35,846 nt of DNA from Archangium sp. Lineage in GTDB: Bacteria > Myxococcota > Myxococcia > Myxococcales > Myxococcaceae. Under the pieces are notes generated by a model. It made no database searches, was not told the origin of the DNA, and saw only the letters and a program-made list of their open reading frames with translations. Below are positions 5,361 through 13,923 of this stretch, one piece after another. The stretch spans positions 1 to 35,846 of the forward strand of contig JANLPS010000132.1 of NCBI GenBank assembly GCA_031367385.1, in the 5' to 3' direction. The position numbers and the translations under genes are program-made. Position 1 is the first letter of the stretch. Each line of letters opens with the position of its first letter.

Positions 5361-5759
5361 GTGTCGCCGGCCAAGCCCATTTCAACCACCGTGGTCTCGC
5401 TGCTGCTGGCGGCGGCGCAGCTGTTGGTGGTCACGCACACCGCCTTCGTGACCCACAGCATCTCGAGCTCGGGCGAGCACCACCACGTCTTGACTGCGGC
5501 TGATCAATCGCACGCGCGCCACGCGGGCCCGAGCGCCACCTGGTGCTCCGAGCATGTCGAGCTCAAGCCGGTCGATGATCTCGCCTGCATCGCGGCCAAG
5601 TGCGCGACCGTCGTCGTGTCGTCAGTGCCCGCGCCTTCAGTCACTGGTGATCTGGCCGCACCCGATCACCACGCAACCGCCTTTCGCTTCACCCGAAACC
5701 CGTTGTCGGTCTTGTCATGCTCGCCGAAGGCCTCACCGCCCTCGACTCGGTTGAGCTGA
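5361..5759 (+). CDS. His/Cys-rich DUF2946 (CruR/CutF)-like leader protein
   Basis: Signal-like N-terminus, His-rich stretch (GEHHHV..SHARH), CIAAKC, Pro/Ala linker and C-terminal SPKASPP. Lies 50 nt upstream of a TBDR. Confidence 0.65.
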   Translation: MSPAKPISTTVVSLLLAAAQLLVVTHTAFVTHSISSSGEHHHVLTAADQSHARHAGPSATWCSEHVELKPVDDLACIAAKCATVVVSSVPAPSVTGDLAAPDHHATAFRFTRNPLSVLSCSPKASPPSTRLS

Positions 5760-5809
5760 CCCTTCAGACAAGTCGACCGTTCACTCTTTTGCAGCGCCCG
5801 GAGTCTGTC

Positions 5810-8341
5810 GTGCATACACGTTCGTGTCGTTGCCTGTTGATTGGCGCGTTGTTCGCCGCATCGGGTGCCAGTGCAGGCGAAGTACAGCCGCCCAAAGTGC
5901 TCAGCCGAGTCGAGGCGCAGGTACCGGTCGGAGCCGAGACGCCCACCCAGAACCACGTGCTGCTCGAGTTCACCATCAACACCGAAGGCAAGGCGGTCGA
6001 GATCTTGGTCATCGAGTCGGCCGGCCGCGCGTGGGACGAAGCGTCGAAGAACGCGCTCGCCGAGTGGGTGTTTCAGCCGGCGCTCCATGAAGGGGTCGCC
6101 ATCGAGAGCCGAACGAGGCTCACCTTCTCGATGCCCATGCCGGGTGACGCGGTGGTCGACGCGGGCAGTGATCTCGCCCCAGAGCCCGACGCGGGGGTGG
6201 TGATGATCGCCGAAGAGATCGACGCGGGCCACCCGGCGCACGAGATGTCGACGCTGGTGCTCGGCCGCACCCAACCCCGAAGCCGAGGGTCGAGCGACTT
6301 TCACTTCGACTTGGGCGAGCAGCGCATCATTCCCCACCCCAAGGCGGCTGACTTCTTGAAGCTCGCGCCAGGCATCTTGCTCACCAACGAAGGCGGCGAA
6401 GGCCACCCGCAGCGCATCTTCTTGCGAGGCTTCGACGCGCGTGAAGGGCAAGACATCGAGCTCTCCATCGACGGCACGCCGATCAACGATTCTGGCAACC
6501 TGCATGGCAACGGGTTCGCCGATACCAACTTCATCATCTCTGACCTGGTCGAGGGCTTTCGCGTCGTCGAAGGCCCGTTCGACCCGCGCCAGGGCAACTA
6601 CGCGGTCGCGGGCAGCGGCGAATACGAGATGGGGCTCGCGCAGCGCGGCCTCACCGCCAAGGCCACCTTCGGCACCTTCAACTCGCAGAAGCTCGACCTC
6701 CTCTGGGGCCCGCGCAATCAATCGACGCACACCTTCGCTGGTGTCGAGCTCTCACGTACCGATGGCTATGGCCAGAACCGCGGCGCCCAAGCTGCGCGCG
6801 TGATGATGCAGTACGAGGGCACGCTCTCTGAATCGACGACCTTTCGAGTGGCGGCCAACGGGTACGCGACGCAATTCAAGACCGCCGGAGTCATTCGCCA
6901 AGACGACCTGATCAGCGGCCGCATCGGCTTCTACGACACCTATGATTCACGACAAGGCGGCGACACCCAGCGCTTCTCGGTCTCGGGAGACCTTCACAAC
7001 CACGAAGGCAACTTCACCAACCACCATCAGATCTTCGCCATCTATCGCAGCTCGCGGTTGCTCGAAAACTTCACCGGCTTCATCACCGACATTCAACAAG
7101 CGCAGCAGTCTCCGCATGATCAGCGCGGAGACCTGGTCGACCGCGACATCTCTGCGATGACGTTGGGCGCGAAGGGCTACGGCCGGTACCGCGGGCGGGT
7201 GTTCGACCGGCCTCAAGAGCTCGAGGTCGGCTACTCCGGGCGCTTCGACATCACCTCCGGGCAACAGCAGCGCATTCTCGCCGGGCCCGACAGCAACACG
7301 CCGTACCACAAAGACGTCGACCTCGATTCGAAGCTCTCTGACCTCGGGCTCTACGCCGACGTGAACCTCTCACTGCTCGATTGGCTCGTCGTGCGCGGTG
7401 GCATGCGCGCAGACTTGTTCACCTATTCGGTTCAGAACAACTGCGCGGTGCAGACGGTGCGCAGGCCTGCGGTGAATGACCCTCCCGGCGACGCGAGCTG
7501 CCTGTCGCAACGTGACTTCGGCATCTACCGTGAGCCCACCGAGCGCGTCGCAGCGACTGGTGCGGCATTCATGCCGCGCGCCAGCCTGCTGCTCGGCCCG
7601 TGGAAGTCGGTGAGCTTCACCGGCTCATACGGCCAAGGCGTTCGCAGCATCGACCCGCAGTTCGTGAATGAAAACCGCGCCACGCCGTTCGCCGCGATTC
7701 GCGCGTGGGAAGGCGGAGCAACCTTTGCCAACCACTTTCGCAACGGCGCGCTCGATGTCACCGGCCGCGCCGTCGTGTTCGGCACACGCGTCGACAAAGA
7801 CCTGATCTTCTCTGAGACCGTTGGCCGCAACGTGTTGGGCGGAGCGACCTCGCGCATCGGCGGCATGCTGCAAGGGCGTGTGCACGGCGGCTTCTTCGAC
7901 GTCTCGGCCCACGCGACCTACGTCACCTCACGCTTCGACGACACCGGGCTGCTGGTGCCCTACGTGCCAGATCTCGTCACCCGCGCCGACGCCGCGTTCT
8001 TTGGCGAGCTGCCCTTCAAGCTGGCCCGCTCGGCCCTCAATGCCCGCGCCGGCATCGGAGCGACCTTCGTCGGGAGGCGTGCCCTGCCCCTGGGTCAACG
8101 CAGCGATGTCATCTTCGTCACCGACGCCAGCACCGAGCTCACCTGGCGCTTCGTCACCATCGGCATCGGCGCGACCAACCTCTTCAACACCCAGTACCGA
8201 GAGTCGGAGTTCAACTACACCGCCGACTTTCACACCACCCAGCCCTACCCCACCCTGGTGCCGGGCCGGCTGTTCACCGCGGGCGCTCCACGAGAGGTCT
8301 TCTTCACCGTGGCCCTCAACGTCGGCGGGAGCGCGTCATGA
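5810..8341 (+). CDS. TonB-dependent receptor with N-terminal TonB C-terminal-like domain
   Basis: GTG 5810 with GGAG RBS and signal peptide. TonB_C-like segment (VLLEFTINTEGKAVEILVIESAG..ALAEWVFQPA), plug motifs (LKLAPGI, IFLRGFD, IDGTPIN, VVEGPF..GNYAVAG) and barrel end NLFNTQY..GAPREVFFTV. Confidence 0.9.
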   Translation: MHTRSCRCLLIGALFAASGASAGEVQPPKVLSRVEAQVPVGAETPTQNHVLLEFTINTEGKAVEILVIESAGRAWDEASKNALAEWVFQPALHEGVAIESRTRLTFSMPMPGDAVVDAGSDLAPEPDAGVVMIAEEIDAGHPAHEMSTLVLGRTQPRSRGSSDFHFDLGEQRIIPHPKAADFLKLAPGILLTNEGGEGHPQRIFLRGFDAREGQDIELSIDGTPINDSGNLHGNGFADTNFIISDLVEGFRVVEGPFDPRQGNYAVAGSGEYEMGLAQRGLTAKATFGTFNSQKLDLLWGPRNQSTHTFAGVELSRTDGYGQNRGAQAARVMMQYEGTLSESTTFRVAANGYATQFKTAGVIRQDDLISGRIGFYDTYDSRQGGDTQRFSVSGDLHNHEGNFTNHHQIFAIYRSSRLLENFTGFITDIQQAQQSPHDQRGDLVDRDISAMTLGAKGYGRYRGRVFDRPQELEVGYSGRFDITSGQQQRILAGPDSNTPYHKDVDLDSKLSDLGLYADVNLSLLDWLVVRGGMRADLFTYSVQNNCAVQTVRRPAVNDPPGDASCLSQRDFGIYREPTERVAATGAAFMPRASLLLGPWKSVSFTGSYGQGVRSIDPQFVNENRATPFAAIRAWEGGATFANHFRNGALDVTGRAVVFGTRVDKDLIFSETVGRNVLGGATSRIGGMLQGRVHGGFFDVSAHATYVTSRFDDTGLLVPYVPDLVTRADAAFFGELPFKLARSALNARAGIGATFVGRRALPLGQRSDVIFVTDASTELTWRFVTIGIGATNLFNTQYRESEFNYTADFHTTQPYPTLVPGRLFTAGAPREVFFTVALNVGGSAS

Positions 8342-9108
8342 GGCCCTCACTCGTACTTTTTCTTCTGGCCACCTCGTGCGTGCAGACCACCGGCGGCGCG
8401 TTGGTTGAATTCTCGGCGACTGCGAGCGGGCCTGCCGACGCAGTCAAAGGGCAGCCGTACCAATTCACCGCGGCCACGGGGTACGCAGTCACCTTGACCC
8501 GCGCCCAGCTCTTCGTCGGCGCCGTGTATCTGAATCAGAGCAACCCCGCCAACTACAGCGGCGAGACTGCGTGCATTTTGCCCGGCATCTACTCAGGCGA
8601 AGTGAAGGGCTCATTGCTCGTCGACGCCCTCGACCCCGCGCCGCAACCTTTTCCAATCAAGGGAGTGGGCACCGACTCGCCCACCCTCGCGGCGGAGCTC
8701 TGGCTCACGGCGGGCGACGTGAATGCCGTCGATGATCAGACCGTGATTCTCTCGGTCGAGGGCACCGCGAAGAAAGACGGCACCGCGTACCCGTTCAGCG
8801 CGAGCTTCACCATTGGCGAGAACCGGCGCACGCCGTCGAGCCCGGCGCTGCCCGGGTCGAACCCGATCTGCAAACAGCGCATCGTCTCGCCGATCGACGC
8901 GCCGTTCACCTTGGCGCAGGGGGGCACGCTCAACGTTCGCGTGAGCCCGGCCGGCTGGTTCGACAGCGTTGATTTTTCTCAGCTCGCACCGGTGAACGGG
9001 CACTTCGAATTTTTCGATGGCCCCAGCAGTCGACAACCCGACATCGCGCTCTACAACGCGTTGCGCGCGCACGCGGGCCCGTATTCTGTCTCTTGGAGTC
9101 AGCCATGA
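8338..9108 (+). CDS. TBDR-associated lipoprotein 1 (unknown function)
   Basis: ATGA overlap with the TBDR, lipobox LATSC, predicted beta-rich body with two further Cys. Confidence 0.85.
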   Translation: MRPSLVLFLLATSCVQTTGGALVEFSATASGPADAVKGQPYQFTAATGYAVTLTRAQLFVGAVYLNQSNPANYSGETACILPGIYSGEVKGSLLVDALDPAPQPFPIKGVGTDSPTLAAELWLTAGDVNAVDDQTVILSVEGTAKKDGTAYPFSASFTIGENRRTPSSPALPGSNPICKQRIVSPIDAPFTLAQGGTLNVRVSPAGWFDSVDFSQLAPVNGHFEFFDGPSSRQPDIALYNALRAHAGPYSVSWSQP

Positions 9109-10199
9109 AGTACGGCCTGCTGGTGACCGCGGCGGTCCTCTCGGCGTGCGGCCCGGTGAAGGGTGGCGGCTTCGACATCATCGTGACCGGCGAAGACGCG
9201 GCGACGCTCGGCATTCCCTTCCCCGCCGCGAGCGATGGGGCTCCGTATTTTCAAGATGGGTGGTCGCTCTCGTTCTCGAAGGTGATTGTTTTCATTGGCG
9301 ATGTTGCGATTTCTGAGAACCCCGATCGCAGCGTCGGTGATCAGTCGCTGACGGGCCCTGTGGTGGCCCACGTCGATGGCCCCTTCGTCGTCGACCTCGC
9401 ACAGCCTGGCCCCCTCGAGTCGAAAGAACAGAACGGCACCGCGTGGCCAGTGACGACGATCACCAGCCCGGCGCTCGACCCCACCCAGAAATACGCGTTC
9501 GGGTACGCGGTGAAGCAGGCCTCGGCCGACGCGAAGAAGCTCAACGAGATTGCTGACGCGACGGTGGCCACCATGGTCGCCCAGGGGTACTCGGTGTGGT
9601 TCGAAGGGGTCGCAGATTTCAAGGGCACCTCGTGCCGATCAACCGTCGCCGACTACGACTTCGCGCGCATCCCCAAGCGCATGCACTTCTCATTCGGGTA
9701 CCGAATACCGACGACGTACAAGAACTGCATCAACCCCGAGCTGCAACCGGCGGAGTCACGAGGCATTCAGGGCATCAGCGGTCAGAACGCGACAGTGCAA
9801 ATCACTTTTCACCTCGATCACCAATTCTGGGAGTCGCTGCAAGAAGACGCACCTCTTCGCTTCGATGTGATCGCCGCGCGCAAATCGGTCGCCATCGGCC
9901 AGGCAGCCCCGGCCTCGGTCGACGTGACGCGAGAAGACCTCACCGGAATCGATTTTCAAGCCGCCCGTGATGCCCAAGGCGTCGCGCTGCCGTGGCGGTA
10001 CTGCGCCGAGTCACTGATCAATGACCGCCAAGAGGGCACCGTCTCATACGACCCCAAGGGCGTACCCGTCAGCGCAGCGGGAGGCACCGCGGGCCTCAAA
10101 GATCTCGCTGACTACATGTCGTACAACCTGTCTTCGTTCGGGCACATGAACAACGATGGGTTCTGCTTTCCCGCGCGTGACTTTGCTGCGCCGAGGTAG
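9105..10199 (+). CDS. TBDR-associated lipoprotein 2 (unknown function)
   Basis: ATGA overlap, lipobox VLSAC, His motifs TFHLDHQFW and FGHMNNDGFC. Confidence 0.85.
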   Translation: MKYGLLVTAAVLSACGPVKGGGFDIIVTGEDAATLGIPFPAASDGAPYFQDGWSLSFSKVIVFIGDVAISENPDRSVGDQSLTGPVVAHVDGPFVVDLAQPGPLESKEQNGTAWPVTTITSPALDPTQKYAFGYAVKQASADAKKLNEIADATVATMVAQGYSVWFEGVADFKGTSCRSTVADYDFARIPKRMHFSFGYRIPTTYKNCINPELQPAESRGIQGISGQNATVQITFHLDHQFWESLQEDAPLRFDVIAARKSVAIGQAAPASVDVTREDLTGIDFQAARDAQGVALPWRYCAESLINDRQEGTVSYDPKGVPVSAAGGTAGLKDLADYMSYNLSSFGHMNNDGFCFPARDFAAPR

Positions 10200-10207
10200 G
10201 TAAGTAC

Positions 10208-10855
10208 GTGGCGGTGAAGAAATTCATTTCGAGCGTGGTTGCAGCATCGTCGATTGCCTGCGCCCCGGCCTGCGTAGCAGCGGGTACCCGAGTGTTGACG
10301 CCCCAAGGTCGACGAAAAATCGAAACGCTCGCCGTCGGCGATGAGATACTTGCTGTCGAAGGGCTTTCGCATCGCTTCGAAATCTCAAGCATTTCAAGGA
10401 TCCGTACGGCGCAACGCGAGTGCGGGATGCTTTCAGCTGCTGAAACGACGCTGATCGTTACACCAGACCATCCGCTCTATGATCCAAACGCTCGCGCGTT
10501 TCATCCAGCCGGAGACTGGCTTCTCGGTGTTCGATCCGCCCTGCTGTCGTTCGATGGTGAGTGCTTTGTTCGAACTGAGGTGACTTCCCGCAGCGTTTTC
10601 GTGGGCGTGCGAACCGTCTTCGACCTCACAGTTGCGTCGTCATTTCATACGTTCGTCGCGGAAGGCGTCGTCGTTCACAACAAGAAACCTATCGAGCCTG
10701 AGTGCGTCATCCCAAACGACGGCGGAGCGACCCGCGCGACCGAAAACATTCGCGATGTCGATGAAGTGCCATGCTCGTGCCTAGACGGCGGCCCCGGATT
10801 GTGGATTTGCGGAGAATTCGGCGCTCCCGCAACCTGTGCTCGATGCAACCGCTAG
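10208..10855 (+). CDS. Putative lipoprotein with a Hint (BIL-A/intein-like) domain and Cys-rich C-terminal peptide
   Basis: Signal plus lipobox-like SIAC(18). Hint block A CVAAGTRVLTPQG (C22, 10271), block B LIVTPDHPLY, blocks F/G VFDLTV..HTFVAEGVVVHN (N158, ends 10681). Then 57 aa with 6 Cys. Confidence 0.88.
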   Translation: MAVKKFISSVVAASSIACAPACVAAGTRVLTPQGRRKIETLAVGDEILAVEGLSHRFEISSISRIRTAQRECGMLSAAETTLIVTPDHPLYDPNARAFHPAGDWLLGVRSALLSFDGECFVRTEVTSRSVFVGVRTVFDLTVASSFHTFVAEGVVVHNKKPIEPECVIPNDGGATRATENIRDVDEVPCSCLDGGPGLWICGEFGAPATCARCNR

Positions 10856-12105
10856 ACGAGCGAAAAACCCTCCGCCGCGCCGCGCCCCAGCCCCTCGGCG
10901 ACGCTGGTGAACGCATCGGCGGTACGCAGCCGCTGGGCGCCGAACTTGCGCGCGAACAACTTCTGCACCGCCGGTATCTGCGAAGACCCGCCGGTCAAGA
11001 ACACCGAGTCGATCTTCAAGCCCGAGGGCACCCGGGCCAGCAGCGAATCGGTCGTCTCTTCGAGCTCGACGATCAAGTGCGCGGAGTACGAATCGAACTC
11101 GTCTCGCGTCAGCTTCTCGTGCACGTGAATGCGCTCGTCATCGAACTCGAGCAACGCCGACTTACTCGTCGAAAGCTCGACCTTCGCCTGCTCAATCGCC
11201 CGAAACAGCCGGTACCCCAGGTTGTACATGACCAAATCATGCAGCGCCTTGATCGCGTCTTTCTTGTCGCTGCTCTTCAACATCTGGTCGATCAGCTCAC
11301 GGGTCGACTTCTCACGAATCAGCGACATCTCGTGCCACGAGAGCAGGCGGCTCAGCACGTAGGTCGGCATCGGCATGCGTTTCATGCCCACCAGGTACGT
11401 CGACCCCTGGCCGAAATATGGCAGCAACTTGTGCTTCATGATCGCCGCGTCGAAGCGATCTCCGCCGACGTACACACCCGCAGACGCGACCACATCGACC
11501 CGGCGGTTCGCGTTGACCCGATGCGAGGGCCCGAGCCACATCAGCGTCAAGTCGGTCGTGCCGGCGCCGAAGTCGGCGACCAGCACCAGCTCATCGCGCT
11601 TCAGGCTCGCCTCGTAGGTCAACGCCGCCGCGATCGGCTCGATCAGAAACCGCACCGACTCGAAGCCCGCGAGCTCGGCTGCCTTTCTCAGGCGCTCCTG
11701 CGCGAACGCATCGGTCTCAGCGCTCGCCGAGAACTGCGCCGGGCGCCCCAGCACGACCTCGGTGATGCTCGAGCCATGCACCTTCGACGCCTGATCACGA
11801 ACCCGCCGCAAGAACACCGCGACCAATTCTTCGAGTGAAAACGCCGAATTGCGAATGGTCGTGCGAGAGAACGAAATGCTCGGCAACCAGGTCTTCATCG
11901 ACTGAATGAAGCGGCCCGAGTTGTCTTCCTGATAGCGCTCGATCGCCTCGTGGCCGGCCAGCGTCTCCTTCGTCTCTTCGGGGAAGAAGAGCACCGAGCG
12001 GAACAACCGGGGCGAGAGCGCCTCTGGGTCGATGCGCAGCACTTCGCCGCTGGGAAGAGCGACGGCGCTGTTGCTGGTGCCGAAGTCGAGGCCGCAGACC
12101 GTCAT
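10852..12105 (-). CDS. Hsp70-family protein (YegD-like)
   Basis: GLDFGTSNS, VVLGRP, EPIAAA, VADFGAGTTD, GGDRFD, VFLTGGSS. No DnaK substrate-binding domain (417 aa). Confidence 0.9.
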   Translation of the reverse strand: MTVCGLDFGTSNSAVALPSGEVLRIDPEALSPRLFRSVLFFPEETKETLAGHEAIERYQEDNSGRFIQSMKTWLPSISFSRTTIRNSAFSLEELVAVFLRRVRDQASKVHGSSITEVVLGRPAQFSASAETDAFAQERLRKAAELAGFESVRFLIEPIAAALTYEASLKRDELVLVADFGAGTTDLTLMWLGPSHRVNANRRVDVVASAGVYVGGDRFDAAIMKHKLLPYFGQGSTYLVGMKRMPMPTYVLSRLLSWHEMSLIREKSTRELIDQMLKSSDKKDAIKALHDLVMYNLGYRLFRAIEQAKVELSTSKSALLEFDDERIHVHEKLTRDEFDSYSAHLIVELEETTDSLLARVPSGLKIDSVFLTGGSSQIPAVQKLFARKFGAQRLRTADAFTSVAEGLGRGAAEGFSLV

Positions 12106-13088
12106 TCAGCCGACGTCTTCGCGGGCTGGTTGCTCTGCTCCGCCTTCATTCGCGCTTCAGCCGCCGCTTCTTCAGCCGTGCCGCCGACCGCTTCGACCGA
12201 GTTCTTCGGAGGCGGCCCCTTGATCACGCCACCCTCACCCGCCGCGCCAGGCACGCCCCAGTCGAAGGCCTTCGCCGCATCACCGACGCCGTCTGGCGTG
12301 GTCGCTCGCAACCGAGATCGCACCCGCGCTATCGACCCCTGCACCACTCTCGGGTCAGGGTGCGTCTTTAGCGCCTCCACCCACAGCTCGATCGCCCGCT
12401 CGTTCTCGCCTTGATCATTCTTCAGCCGCCCCAGCTCGAACAGCGCATGCGGTTTGAGCTCGGAGTCAGGAAAGCGATCGACCAGATCCATGAACGCGCG
12501 CTGCGCTTCGAGCTTGCGGCCATCCATCATCGAGAGGGCCTGGCCGCGCAAGAACAACGCGTCGTCGACGAACACACTGGTCTCGTACTTTCGCGCCACC
12601 GCCGACGCTTCGATTTCACACTGCTCGTAGTCTTGCAGCTCGAAGTAGAGCGTCGCGACCTGGTACGCGAGCTCAGCGCTCTGCGGTGGGTTTCTGGCCA
12701 ACGCCGCGGTCAGCTCGGCGATCGCCCCGCGCAGATCATGAAACTCACGGCGCAACAGAGTCGCCAGGTGAATGCGCCCATCGAGCGTCTCCGGAGCCTC
12801 GGGGCACAGCTGAATCAGCTCGCGGTACACCTGCGTGGCCTTCTTGTAGTCACGCAGCTCGAAGAAATAGGTGTCAGCCGCGCCCCGCAACGCGCGCGCC
12901 CGGTAGACCTGGGCCTGCGGTGAGGTGTCTCGCTCGAGCAGGTCGAGGGCGGCCTTGAACTCCAGCAAGGCCAGGTCGGCGTTTCGAACGAACAACGCGG
13001 TCTTCGCCTTCTCGAGGTGCTCAGGGGCGTCGGCCTTCTTGCAGCCCGCACCCAGCAGCAACACCGTGATCAGCGCCAGGCGTCTCAT
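12102..13088 (-). CDS. Tetratricopeptide-repeat lipoprotein
   Basis: Lipobox GAGC and repeated TPR-like helix pairs (DALFLRGQAL, HALFELGRL). Start ATG 13088. Confidence 0.85.
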   Translation of the reverse strand: MRRLALITVLLLGAGCKKADAPEHLEKAKTALFVRNADLALLEFKAALDLLERDTSPQAQVYRARALRGAADTYFFELRDYKKATQVYRELIQLCPEAPETLDGRIHLATLLRREFHDLRGAIAELTAALARNPPQSAELAYQVATLYFELQDYEQCEIEASAVARKYETSVFVDDALFLRGQALSMMDGRKLEAQRAFMDLVDRFPDSELKPHALFELGRLKNDQGENERAIELWVEALKTHPDPRVVQGSIARVRSRLRATTPDGVGDAAKAFDWGVPGAAGEGGVIKGPPPKNSVEAVGGTAEEAAAEARMKAEQSNQPAKTSAE

Positions 13089-13309
13089 GGAGTGCACGTC
13101 GAGCCATACAAGACACAGTGCGACGCTTCACAGCCGACGCAGCCGTAGCGGGCGTCGATGGTGGCCCCGCACACCAGCGTGTTCGATGGGCGCGGGCAGT
13201 CGGTCGCCTGCACACAACGCATGACCCCGCCATCTGGGCCAACGACCGACTTGGGGCACGTGGGGACACACGCACACAGAATGAACGCCAGGCCGACCAC
13301 GAAACGCAT
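13085..13309 (-). CDS. Small Cys-rich lipoprotein (74 aa)
   Basis: GAGG RBS, MRFVVGLAFILCAC lipobox, 8 Cys in the mature part; the stop overlaps the TPR gene start (ATGA). Confidence 0.8.
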   Translation of the reverse strand: MRFVVGLAFILCACVPTCPKSVVGPDGGVMRCVQATDCPRPSNTLVCGATIDARYGCVGCEASHCVLYGSTCTP

Positions 13310-13335
13310 GACGCCTCGTCTACCACTTTCGCCCG

Positions 13336-13923
13336 TCACTTTTCGAGCACGTTGGCCTGCCACTGCCGCATCGCCTCGCGCAGCAGGGTCGGGGTGTTCT
13401 TGAACACGCCATCGACGGTCACTTCGCCGCCGGCGTACTGAGGCTTGCCGTTTTCGATGCCGACCTTCACCTTGCTCGTGCCCCGGAGCGCCCACTTCTG
13501 AGCGCCCTGGTACATCAGCAACTTCTGCGTCGCAGGAGAGACGTCGCTTCGACACCCGAGCCGGTACTGAAAGCTCACCTCGGCGCGCCCGTTGTCGTCG
13601 ATGTCGGTGACCTCGATCGAGTCGGCGATGACTCCCATCGTCAGGTCGAACGCGCAGTCTTTGACGAAATCTTTGGCCGACCACACCGTGACCCACTTGG
13701 CTTTGGGCGTCGCGCGCACCTCGCTGACCACGGTGAGCGTCGACGAGCGTACCCAGTCGTCACCCTTCTTCACTTTGTCGACTGGCGACTCGGTGATGGT
13801 CACCTGGTGCTCGCCGTCGCGGTCAGAAAACGTGACCACGATCACCCCATCGTGCCGCGGAGAAACCTGAATCAATGGCGAGACTTGCCCAAGCACCACC
13901 CACAGCGCCGCAGCGGTCAGCAT
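13336..13923 (-). CDS. Secreted protein, resembles the M949_RS01915 family
   Basis: Signal-like N-terminus; W..KDFVKDCAFD, VTDIDDNGRAEV, YRLGCRSDVSP, KWALRG. Family assignment is from memory. Confidence 0.65.
   Translation of the reverse strand: MLTAAALWVVLGQVSPLIQVSPRHDGVIVVTFSDRDGEHQVTITESPVDKVKKGDDWVRSSTLTVVSEVRATPKAKWVTVWSAKDFVKDCAFDLTMGVIADSIEVTDIDDNGRAEVSFQYRLGCRSDVSPATQKLLMYQGAQKWALRGTSKVKVGIENGKPQYAGGEVTVDGVFKNTPTLLREAMRQWQANVLEK

Follow-up and report, generated by a model that had tools for sequence, protein, structure and literature searches.

The window (the whole 35,846-nucleotide stretch of Archangium sp. DNA that we analysed) carries a gene for a small precursor in which a predicted lipoprotein signal, a minimal Hint domain, a lysine and a cysteine-rich module follow one another closely. 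Judged from its homologues, this lipoprotein–Hint–Lys precursor is real and not a lone oddity: the family to which it belongs is large and found mainly in Myxococcota metagenome genomes, and its common plan is a lipobox, zero to seven residues, a Hint domain, His-Asn followed by Lys, and a variable cargo. The best of the readings that we weighed, which we put at somewhat less than an even chance, is that the Hint would cut itself out while the lipid stub is ligated to Lys159; the product would be a miniprotein of about 61 residues held by a lipid anchor. The first-pass annotation of this DNA had listed splicing into a lipid-anchored miniprotein among several options, and it comes out ahead on account of the fixed Lys at +1, the kept catalytic set and the association with a lipobox.

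Translation confirms the layout that had been claimed for the gene, namely Cys18, Ala-Pro-Ala, a Hint domain from C22 to N158 with Cys1, TxxH, a block-F Asp and a terminal His-Asn, then Lys and a 57-aa six-Cys tail (Table 1). The codon of Cys18 occupies 10259–10261 and those of Ala-Pro-Ala 10262–10270, and the cysteines of the C-terminal module are residues 166, 189, 191, 201, 210 and 213. The precursor has the sequence features of a Sec/SPII substrate (basic n-region, uncharged h-region and lipobox Cys), from which its lipidation is predicted. Lipoboxes were called with Prosite-type patterns, strict and relaxed. The earlier description of Cys18 as lipobox-like holds insofar as the sequence, S-I-A-C, passes such a pattern and 159 of 170 relatives have a lipobox-type Cys, but the Ser at −3 is non-canonical. 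The true start may be the GTG at 10214 (MKKF...) instead of 10208; homologues mostly begin M-K/R-K/R. Cys72 is conserved at 72% in 169 family members, and a redox-lock role was considered for it. The stretch is found whole in one contig in three of four sequencing runs, with no differences and no gaps in those contigs; these three runs are listed as sediment metagenomes and may be the source samples of the stretch itself.

Table 1. Positions of the precursor gene and its predicted parts in the window.
Feature	Position	Strand	Basis
Precursor gene, lipoprotein–Hint–Lys–Cys-module, 215 aa	10208..10855	+	ORF translation; single copy in G000
Predicted lipoprotein (Sec/SPII) signal peptide, basic n-region K4-K5, uncharged h-region	10208..10258	+	Sequence
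N-extein left by signal cleavage: predicted lipidated Cys18 and Ala-Pro-Ala	10259..10270	+	Sequence
Hint domain C22–N158, 137 aa, no endonuclease	10271..10681	+	Profiles, model, structure comparison, family conservation
Hint catalytic residues	Cys1 10271; block B T85 10460 and H88 10469; block F D139 10622; H157-N158 10676..10681	+	
Lys159, +1 residue, proposed acceptor nucleophile	10682..10684	+	Conservation in family
Acidic C-extein of 57 aa with six Cys, C-x(22)-C-x-C-x(9)-C-x(8)-C-x2-C, and a weak likeness to fibronectin type I	10682..10852	+	

The profile searches that had been named as a check place both Hint_2 (30.2 bits against a cut-off of 28.4) and TIGR01443 (19.0 against 15.6) above threshold. 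For PT-HINT (PF07591), the profile covering the described type A bacterial intein-like domains (BILs), the result is mixed: the precursor has no match at E 0.01 in the Pfam search, and several relatives match it weakly, two of them above the cut-off. The best profile match of the precursor Hint is the Clostridium thermocellum BIL (E 1e-12), and a search of the ESM Atlas with the whole protein returned only Hint clusters. An AlphaFold model of the domain, built on a 59-sequence alignment, has a pLDDT of 87.5 and finds Tetrahymena BIL2 as its top Foldseek match (E 1e-9). By VIA the model matches the C. thermocellum BIL 2lwy with Z 19.9 and an rmsd of 1.8 over 133 residues, with three inteins and BIL2 tied with 2lwy within 1 Z unit; because the Foldseek and VIA ranks among Hints are near-tied, the top rank of BIL2 is uninformative on chemistry. 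As the first-pass annotation stated, there is no endonuclease: the 137-aa domain has no insert. With all catalytic residues kept it appears to be an intact, type-A-BIL-like self-processing domain, its activity being predicted from sequence. An equivalence of E71 with the Hedgehog catalytic Asp was considered and dropped.

A single-sequence search found six full-length relatives of 196–241 aa with the same plan, and a profile made from these six reached 179 representatives at E ≤ 1e-30 among 1.84 billion, the best 150 of which were examined. Relatives are named "Hint domain-containing protein" or "hypothetical protein" in the databases, with one stray "filamentous hemagglutinin". All 14 named genome loci lie in Myxococcota metagenome-assembled genomes, 13 of them Myxococcaceae/Archangium-type or unplaced and one Polyangiaceae. 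With a Hint-only profile, and ten candidates scored per genome, 76 of 401 genomes of the phylum have some match and 23 a strong one (E < 1e-40), and the strong matches in those 23 all come from the lipoprotein–Hint–Lys family. Pooling gave 217 proteins, with kinship kept (no dereplication); 42 were dropped for low score or a cut N-terminus and five for leader length, leaving 170. The lipobox pattern is strict in 113 of these, relaxed in 46 and absent in 11. Between the lipobox Cys and Hint Cys1 lie at most seven residues in 146 of 159 members, and none at all in 27. HN-K closes the Hint in 165 of the 170, the six-Cys module is carried by 68, and the longest cargo has 306 aa. These counts overstate independent support, as the members are related and the pooled set keeps near-duplicates. 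In a quick tree of 87 domains the lipoprotein family forms its own branch (SH-aLRT 96) and 12 toxin-type Hints a separate one (SH-aLRT 99). The C-terminal cargo varies widely behind a constant Hint, a pattern that the first-pass annotation had proposed to look for in homologues, and its worry that the gene is a truncated remnant of a longer polymorphic toxin is answered by an intact family with its own branch.

Several other arrangements of the domain occur. Signal-less, stand-alone Hints ending V-G-D or V-H-D (the Hint ORFs of L045, L082, L085 and L086; also L087) are nested inside the lipoprotein family and are possibly a subfamily capable of N-cleavage only; four of them adjoin a conserved protein of about 135 aa with a hydrophobic leader. 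Some secreted or membrane proteins (P0016, P0062, P0064, P0106, P0117, P0119, P0124, L066 and L067) carry two to five tandem Hints behind an R-G-G-G-G leader, with K, K-G or K-G-G as the links between them; one of these proteins has a Tim44/TimA match below the cut-off, and in L067 a single Lys is shared, standing at +1 to one Hint and at −1 to its successor. Genome G402 holds five paralogues in tandem arrays on two contigs (L083, L041, L126–L130), each laid out as lipobox, Hint, Lys, Cys module and a large beta-rich domain. Four long cysteine-rich proteins (L047, L051, L052 and L064) carry a terminal Hint, then Lys and only 6–18 residues. L008, a lipoprotein-like protein of 684 aa, has a different C-terminal Hint that lacks His-Asn and is possibly of the C-type BIL kind.

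The feature that most sets the family apart is the residue after the Hint. Among 169 single-Hint members (median identity 43%) Lys occupies +1 in 98%, and Cys1 (99%), the block B Thr and His, the block F Asp and the His-Asn pair are kept in 98–99%; the flanks vary, Ser being commonest at both −1 (38%) and +2 (56%). The profile used at first, which included the Lys column, gave Lys in 192 of 195 and the search was repeated with a Hint-only profile lacking that column to remove the built-in bias. Every one of the 85 close domains then found ends in HN followed by Lys, with Arg in none, and 40 of 40 HN-ending domains in 33 distant matches, by Pfam mostly helicase, RecA and portal inteins, have Ser (20), Thr (11) or Cys (9) at +1. 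Twenty distant Hints were fetched as a control set. In the toxin-type branch (n = 12) position +1 is Ala (4), Thr (4), Asn (2), Gln (1) or Lys (1); 11 of these 12 Hints lie in open frames of 1,000–6,700 codons, and the toxin-tip label comes from length and layout, not from Pfam. Since toxin-type Hints have Lys in only one of 12, C-terminal release alone apparently does not need Lys at +1. Across 173 proteins, lipobox and HN-K occur together in 158, HN-K alone in 11, lipobox alone in none and neither in four; by this tally the two features are lost together. HN then Lys also ends the Hints of other secreted proteins and of tandem arrays in Tim44-like proteins. The first-pass annotation had recorded Lys as the mere absence of a Cys, Ser or Thr nucleophile. 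Those residues are indeed lacking, but Lys is a near-invariant family feature and points to lysine chemistry.

In phage ORFs, by pattern match over 78 viral loci, HN is followed by Lys in four of 14 distinct HN-ending domains (in one case with a stop directly after) and by Gly in eight. In nine phage ORFs of about 440 aa (L178–L180, L185, L194, L198, L207, L211 and L213) a run of glycines precedes Cys1 and G-G-G-G-K comes after His-Asn, so that Lys stands at +5 and not at +1.

Splicing onto Lys159 would proceed as follows. Lgt/LspA-type lipidation and signal removal at Cys18, suggested by the lipobox and the family, would come first. By analogy with inteins and BILs, an N-S shift at Ala21-Cys22, aided by T85/H88 and D139, would then form a thioester. 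The side-chain amine of Lys159 would most likely take the acyl group before Asn158 cyclises, giving an isopeptide; alternatively the Lys159 alpha-amine might take it after Asn158 cyclisation, the route proposed for type A BILs. Cyclisation of Asn158 would free the 137-aa Hint, and some uncoupled cleavage is to be expected alongside splicing. The anchored product would be a small disulfide-bonded module, perhaps an Fn1-like binding module. Because Lys is fixed and Arg is not substituted for it, we read the lysine as offering its side-chain amine in place of Cys, Ser or Thr. Were Asn cyclisation or alpha-amine attack all that counted, +1 should be unconstrained, as it is in toxin-type Hints. Retention of both ends of the active site, Cys1 and His-Asn, was counted for splicing. 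Taken separately, ligation through the epsilon amine is a tentative proposal that we rate clearly below an even chance, and ligation through the alpha-amine is distinctly less likely than that.

Published work on related domains points both ways. In the passages cited, Tetrahymena BIL2 is described as forming a Lys-epsilon isopeptide by splicing (PMC8616854), a precedent for ligation. Against ligation, the part of the report on type A BILs cited here describes cleavage products as dominant and one domain as splicing only once its +1 residue was changed to Cys (PMC4031507), and a review states that type A BILs cannot ligate (PMC7765530). The lysine could also be a helper residue and not the acceptor, or an oxidising compartment could block Cys1.

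The main rival, a real contender although we rate it clearly below an even chance, is timed release of the cargo, which the first-pass annotation had offered as release of a disulfide-rich peptide. The anchor would only route the precursor to the envelope, where Asn158 cyclisation would free a Lys-initiated cargo; thioester hydrolysis would be optional, the Hint would act as a delayed second signal peptidase and Lys at +1 would tune the reaction. The dominance of cleavage in type A BILs, as that same report has it (PMC4031507), fits this, as does a cargo that varies widely behind a constant Hint. Homologues of two cargo domains that occur apart from a Hint bear on the choice in opposite directions. 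For one cargo, nine of ten matches are Hint-less and all nine of those have an A-T-S leader and no lipobox, with Arg (6) or Gln (3) at the place taken by Lys in the Hint form; this is what one would expect if a free domain with a basic N-terminus were released, and it speaks against ligation. (These nine proteins, L248–L256, are cysteine-rich, and their motif seems less variable than a usual signal peptidase site.) For another cargo, eight of ten matches are Hint-less and all eight have lipobox-type leaders; because these homologues are ordinary lipoproteins, anchoring suits this cargo, which counts against release. Release is also at odds with the Hints of toxin type, which are held to release their cargo and have a free +1, with the failure of Arg ever to replace Lys in the 85 close Hint forms, and with the retention of Cys1 at 99%. 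A third cargo (P0150, residues 186–323), in a weak search for Hint-less homologues, gave 17 candidates among proteins of 30–176 aa, none significant. The fourth (L083) occurs in only five Hint-bearing paralogues in one of 208 genomes, with no Hint-less relative there. G000 holds no Hint-less paralogue of any of the 170 cargos and no second family Hint.

Some hosts can be read directly in terms of splicing onto the lysine. In L089/L147 a second Cys module precedes the Hint, which thus lies between two tandem modules of a lipoprotein, and in Tim44-like proteins tandem Hints separate signal region from body; clean excision would leave such proteins whole. The same thioester could instead act in trans, with the lipidated stub, Cys(-Ala-Pro-Ala), going to an amine of another molecule, for example Lys+1 in a second precursor or a lysine in a different envelope protein, as an ATP-free lipidation or cross-linking device. 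BIL2 is described, in the text cited, as joining its N-extein, by way of lysine, to another protein (PMC8616854), and in 27 of 159 members the N-extein is the lipobox Cys alone, a pure lipid donor. No common neighbour gene offers itself as acceptor, however, and a nucleophile fixed in cis at +1 would favour an intramolecular reaction; we regard transfer in trans as unlikely.

The 57-aa module is acidic (6 K/R, 9 D/E) and weakly resembles a fibronectin type I finger in its model, though it has six Cys where that fold, with its C-x-C ... G-x-W-x-C core, would have four. Its model has pLDDT 69, and 11 of 18 VIA rows are Fn1-bearing chains at Z of only 2.0–2.9, for example Z 2.9 and rmsd 3.9 over 50 aligned residues. 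Profile matches to fibronectin stay below threshold (E 0.08–0.95). Nothing in Pfam is significant for 23 such modules, the best being FIBL-2 (E 0.02) and fn1 (E 0.22), and an ESM Atlas search with the module gave no usable match. A profile of the module finds matches in 27 of 208 family genomes, directly behind HN-K in 29 of 30 loci and spuriously in one, a result that is partly circular, the profile having been built from such loci. In relatives it often does no more than open a longer cargo. For these reasons (acidic, weakly Fn1-like, often part of something larger) the antimicrobial role once suggested for a released peptide is unlikely.

Both parts appear to be under purifying selection in orthologues. 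For the closest pairs the Hint has dN 0.015–0.046 and dS 0.28–0.33 (dN/dS about 0.05–0.16), and the module has dN/dS 0.03–0.12; pairs with the window's own copy are saturated at silent sites, and the estimate covers orthologues.

The window's copy itself has an unusual codon usage, as the first-pass annotation had seen: GC3 is 0.595, against 0.78–0.88 for most neighbours, which places the gene among the bottom 2.9% of 5,179 ORFs picked heuristically from the genome. Eleven homologues have GC3 of 0.76–0.91, low GC3 being a trait of this copy only, which suggests its recent arrival. A minus-strand ORF at 13085–13696 also has GC3 of 0.55 as called; the real start probably lies further in, in which case the product would be short, cysteine-rich and lipoprotein-like. 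Because truncated, frameshifted or HN-less copies of the family occur (L006, L020 and L021 are broken, truncated or frameshifted, and L087 lacks HN), the gene is accessory. One syntenic site, next to an acyl-CoA-dehydrogenase-like gene, has intact, broken and degenerate copies of the family. A reading of the gene as inert or decaying, in which the full-length lipoprotein works unprocessed in vivo or the low-GC3 copy is a passenger, draws on those broken copies, on the GC3 in the genome's lowest 3% and on the patchy distribution (strong matches in 23 of 401 phylum genomes). Every catalytic residue is kept in this copy, however, its branch length (0.38) is like that of its sister (0.35) and the orthologues are under purifying selection; we give this reading little credence, marginally less than transfer in trans.

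Immediately upstream, at 5361–10199, lies an operon of a His-containing 132-aa ORF, a TonB_C-fused TonB-dependent receptor (TBDR) and two lipoproteins that have no Pfam match; at least six relatives keep the last three of these genes. The 8-nt gap that had been noted between the stop at 10199 and the precursor gene is confirmed, and read-through transcription from the operon is possible. A functional link between the two, as the first-pass annotation had entertained, is rejected: the TBDR and two-lipoprotein operon is kept in G001, G002, G006, G010, G012 and G014 (seven loci), where the 1.5 kb that follow contain no Hint gene, and the operon genes are absent from all other Hint-family loci tested. 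The next gene was read in five of these genomes and is a different one in each; in G002 it resembles, by eye, a CobW-type GTPase, hinting at metal uptake. A 218-nt low-depth contig of a related strain holds the end of the upstream gene followed by unrelated DNA, a weak sign of an empty site. A scan of 9000–11500 gave no promoter-like sites (0.4 in shuffles) and two terminator-like ones (2.2 in shuffles), an uninformative result.

On the other side the next gene, Hsp70-like, lies on the minus strand (10852–12105) and is convergent, so there is no immunity gene downstream; the first-pass annotation was right that neither a toxin domain nor an adjacent immunity gene is present, the former by Pfam families. 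Gene ends were taken from 40 loci, two of them unparsed. Among the 39 scored, 19 have a convergent neighbour, 10 none near, eight a co-directional one and two fall short of flank, and no small gene recurs downstream as an immunity-like partner. Neighbours are shared between family loci only as synteny among close kin. These results bear on whether the gene is a polymorphic-toxin remnant or cassette, or a lipoprotein toxin of the SitA kind. Related genomes do have long RHS-like ORFs in which Hints come before toxin tips (L007), and lipoprotein toxins occur in myxobacteria according to the passages cited (PMC10433427). Pfam, however, finds no toxin family in 65 members with long cargos (one has a META domain), uncurated toxins lying beyond its reach; the absence of a common downstream gene, the modest length of even the longest cargo and the separation of the branches in the quick tree count the same way, and we consider a toxin origin very improbable.

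Protein splicing is known to use Cys, Ser or Thr at +1, and BILs that lack them have been described as mainly cleaving. Here well over a hundred divergent proteins hold Lys at +1 as tightly as the catalytic residues, and the family thus offers a sharp test of splicing by a lysine side chain. With a four-residue donor and a 57-residue acceptor the precursor is about the smallest natural substrate for it. We would go only tentatively further, to a proposal that is possible but less than likely: that His-Asn-Lys Hints are a distinct splicing class, with the Lys side chain as +1 nucleophile, that builds isopeptide-anchored lipoproteins in myxobacteria. If true, this would mean a new splicing class, a new lipoprotein linkage and possibly a tool for isopeptide ligation or lipidation; the lipid anchor would sit on an isopeptide bond, in 27 of 159 members as a bare lipidated Cys on lysine, by a self-catalysed, ATP-free lipidation, and the 215-aa gene would be a minimal model of lysine-side-chain splicing. 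Should splicing fail, the work would still define a family of self-releasing lipoproteins. We found no account of lipoprotein–Hint–Lys proteins in the open full-text literature searched; the primary BIL papers may list His-Asn-Lys BILs.

Among known systems the precursor Hint is closest to the type A BILs. By the sequence features tested, the PT-HINT match excepted, it would be one of them: with the C. thermocellum domain (PDB 2LWY) it shares the minimal Hint fold, Cys1, block B Thr-x-x-His, the terminal His-Asn, the lack of Cys, Ser or Thr at +1, the lack of an endonuclease and variable hosts. In the portions of the literature cited, type A BILs likewise end in His-Asn (PMC4031507) and sit in variable, non-conserved bacterial proteins (PMC5874633). 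It differs in having Lys fixed at +1, in an N-extein reduced to a predicted lipidated Cys plus zero to seven residues, and in giving no PT-HINT match at E 0.01.

BIL2 of the Tetrahymena BUBL1 locus (PDB 6Y75/6TMM), the best Foldseek match, shares the Hint fold and is a Hint that has no standard +1 nucleophile. Its exteins are ubiquitin-like domains in a ciliate, whereas the precursor would have a lipid stub as donor and has its lysine at +1. The BIL2 construct shows L-R-G-G before position 1; here the N-extein is Cys-Ala-Pro-Ala, and a BUBL protein was rejected for lack of a ubiquitin-like domain ending in Gly-Gly.

Class 1 mini-inteins (Mtu RecA, Ssp/Npu DnaB) have the same fold and blocks A, B, F and G, but they need Cys, Ser or Thr at +1 (40 of 40 distant domains, against Lys in 85 of 85 close ones) and sit in conserved housekeeping enzymes, not in variable lipoproteins; membership of that class failed on both the +1 residue and the host type. 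The PT-HINT domains of polymorphic toxins also precede a variable C-terminal cargo, and their immunity gene is adjacent in the same operon, in the account cited (PMC3482391). Our family has no long trafficking region, toxin domain or immunity gene, forms a separate branch and has a fixed Lys; assignment as a polymorphic toxin was rejected for lack of a toxin Pfam family, in the precursor or the long-cargo members, and of an immunity gene. The SitA toxins of myxobacteria are lipoproteins with a variable C-terminus too, described in the section cited as having an escort domain, a C-terminal nuclease and a sitI partner (PMC10433427). Pfam and the neighbouring genes gave neither a nuclease or toxin family nor a partner gene, and on these grounds a SitA toxin was rejected.

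The Hedgehog autoprocessing domain (fold Z 18.7) offers a final parallel, in that a Hint thioester joins lipid and protein in a secreted precursor. The polarity would be reversed: Hedgehog passes protein onto cholesterol, whereas in the proposed reaction the lipid is on the donor and a protein lysine is the acceptor.
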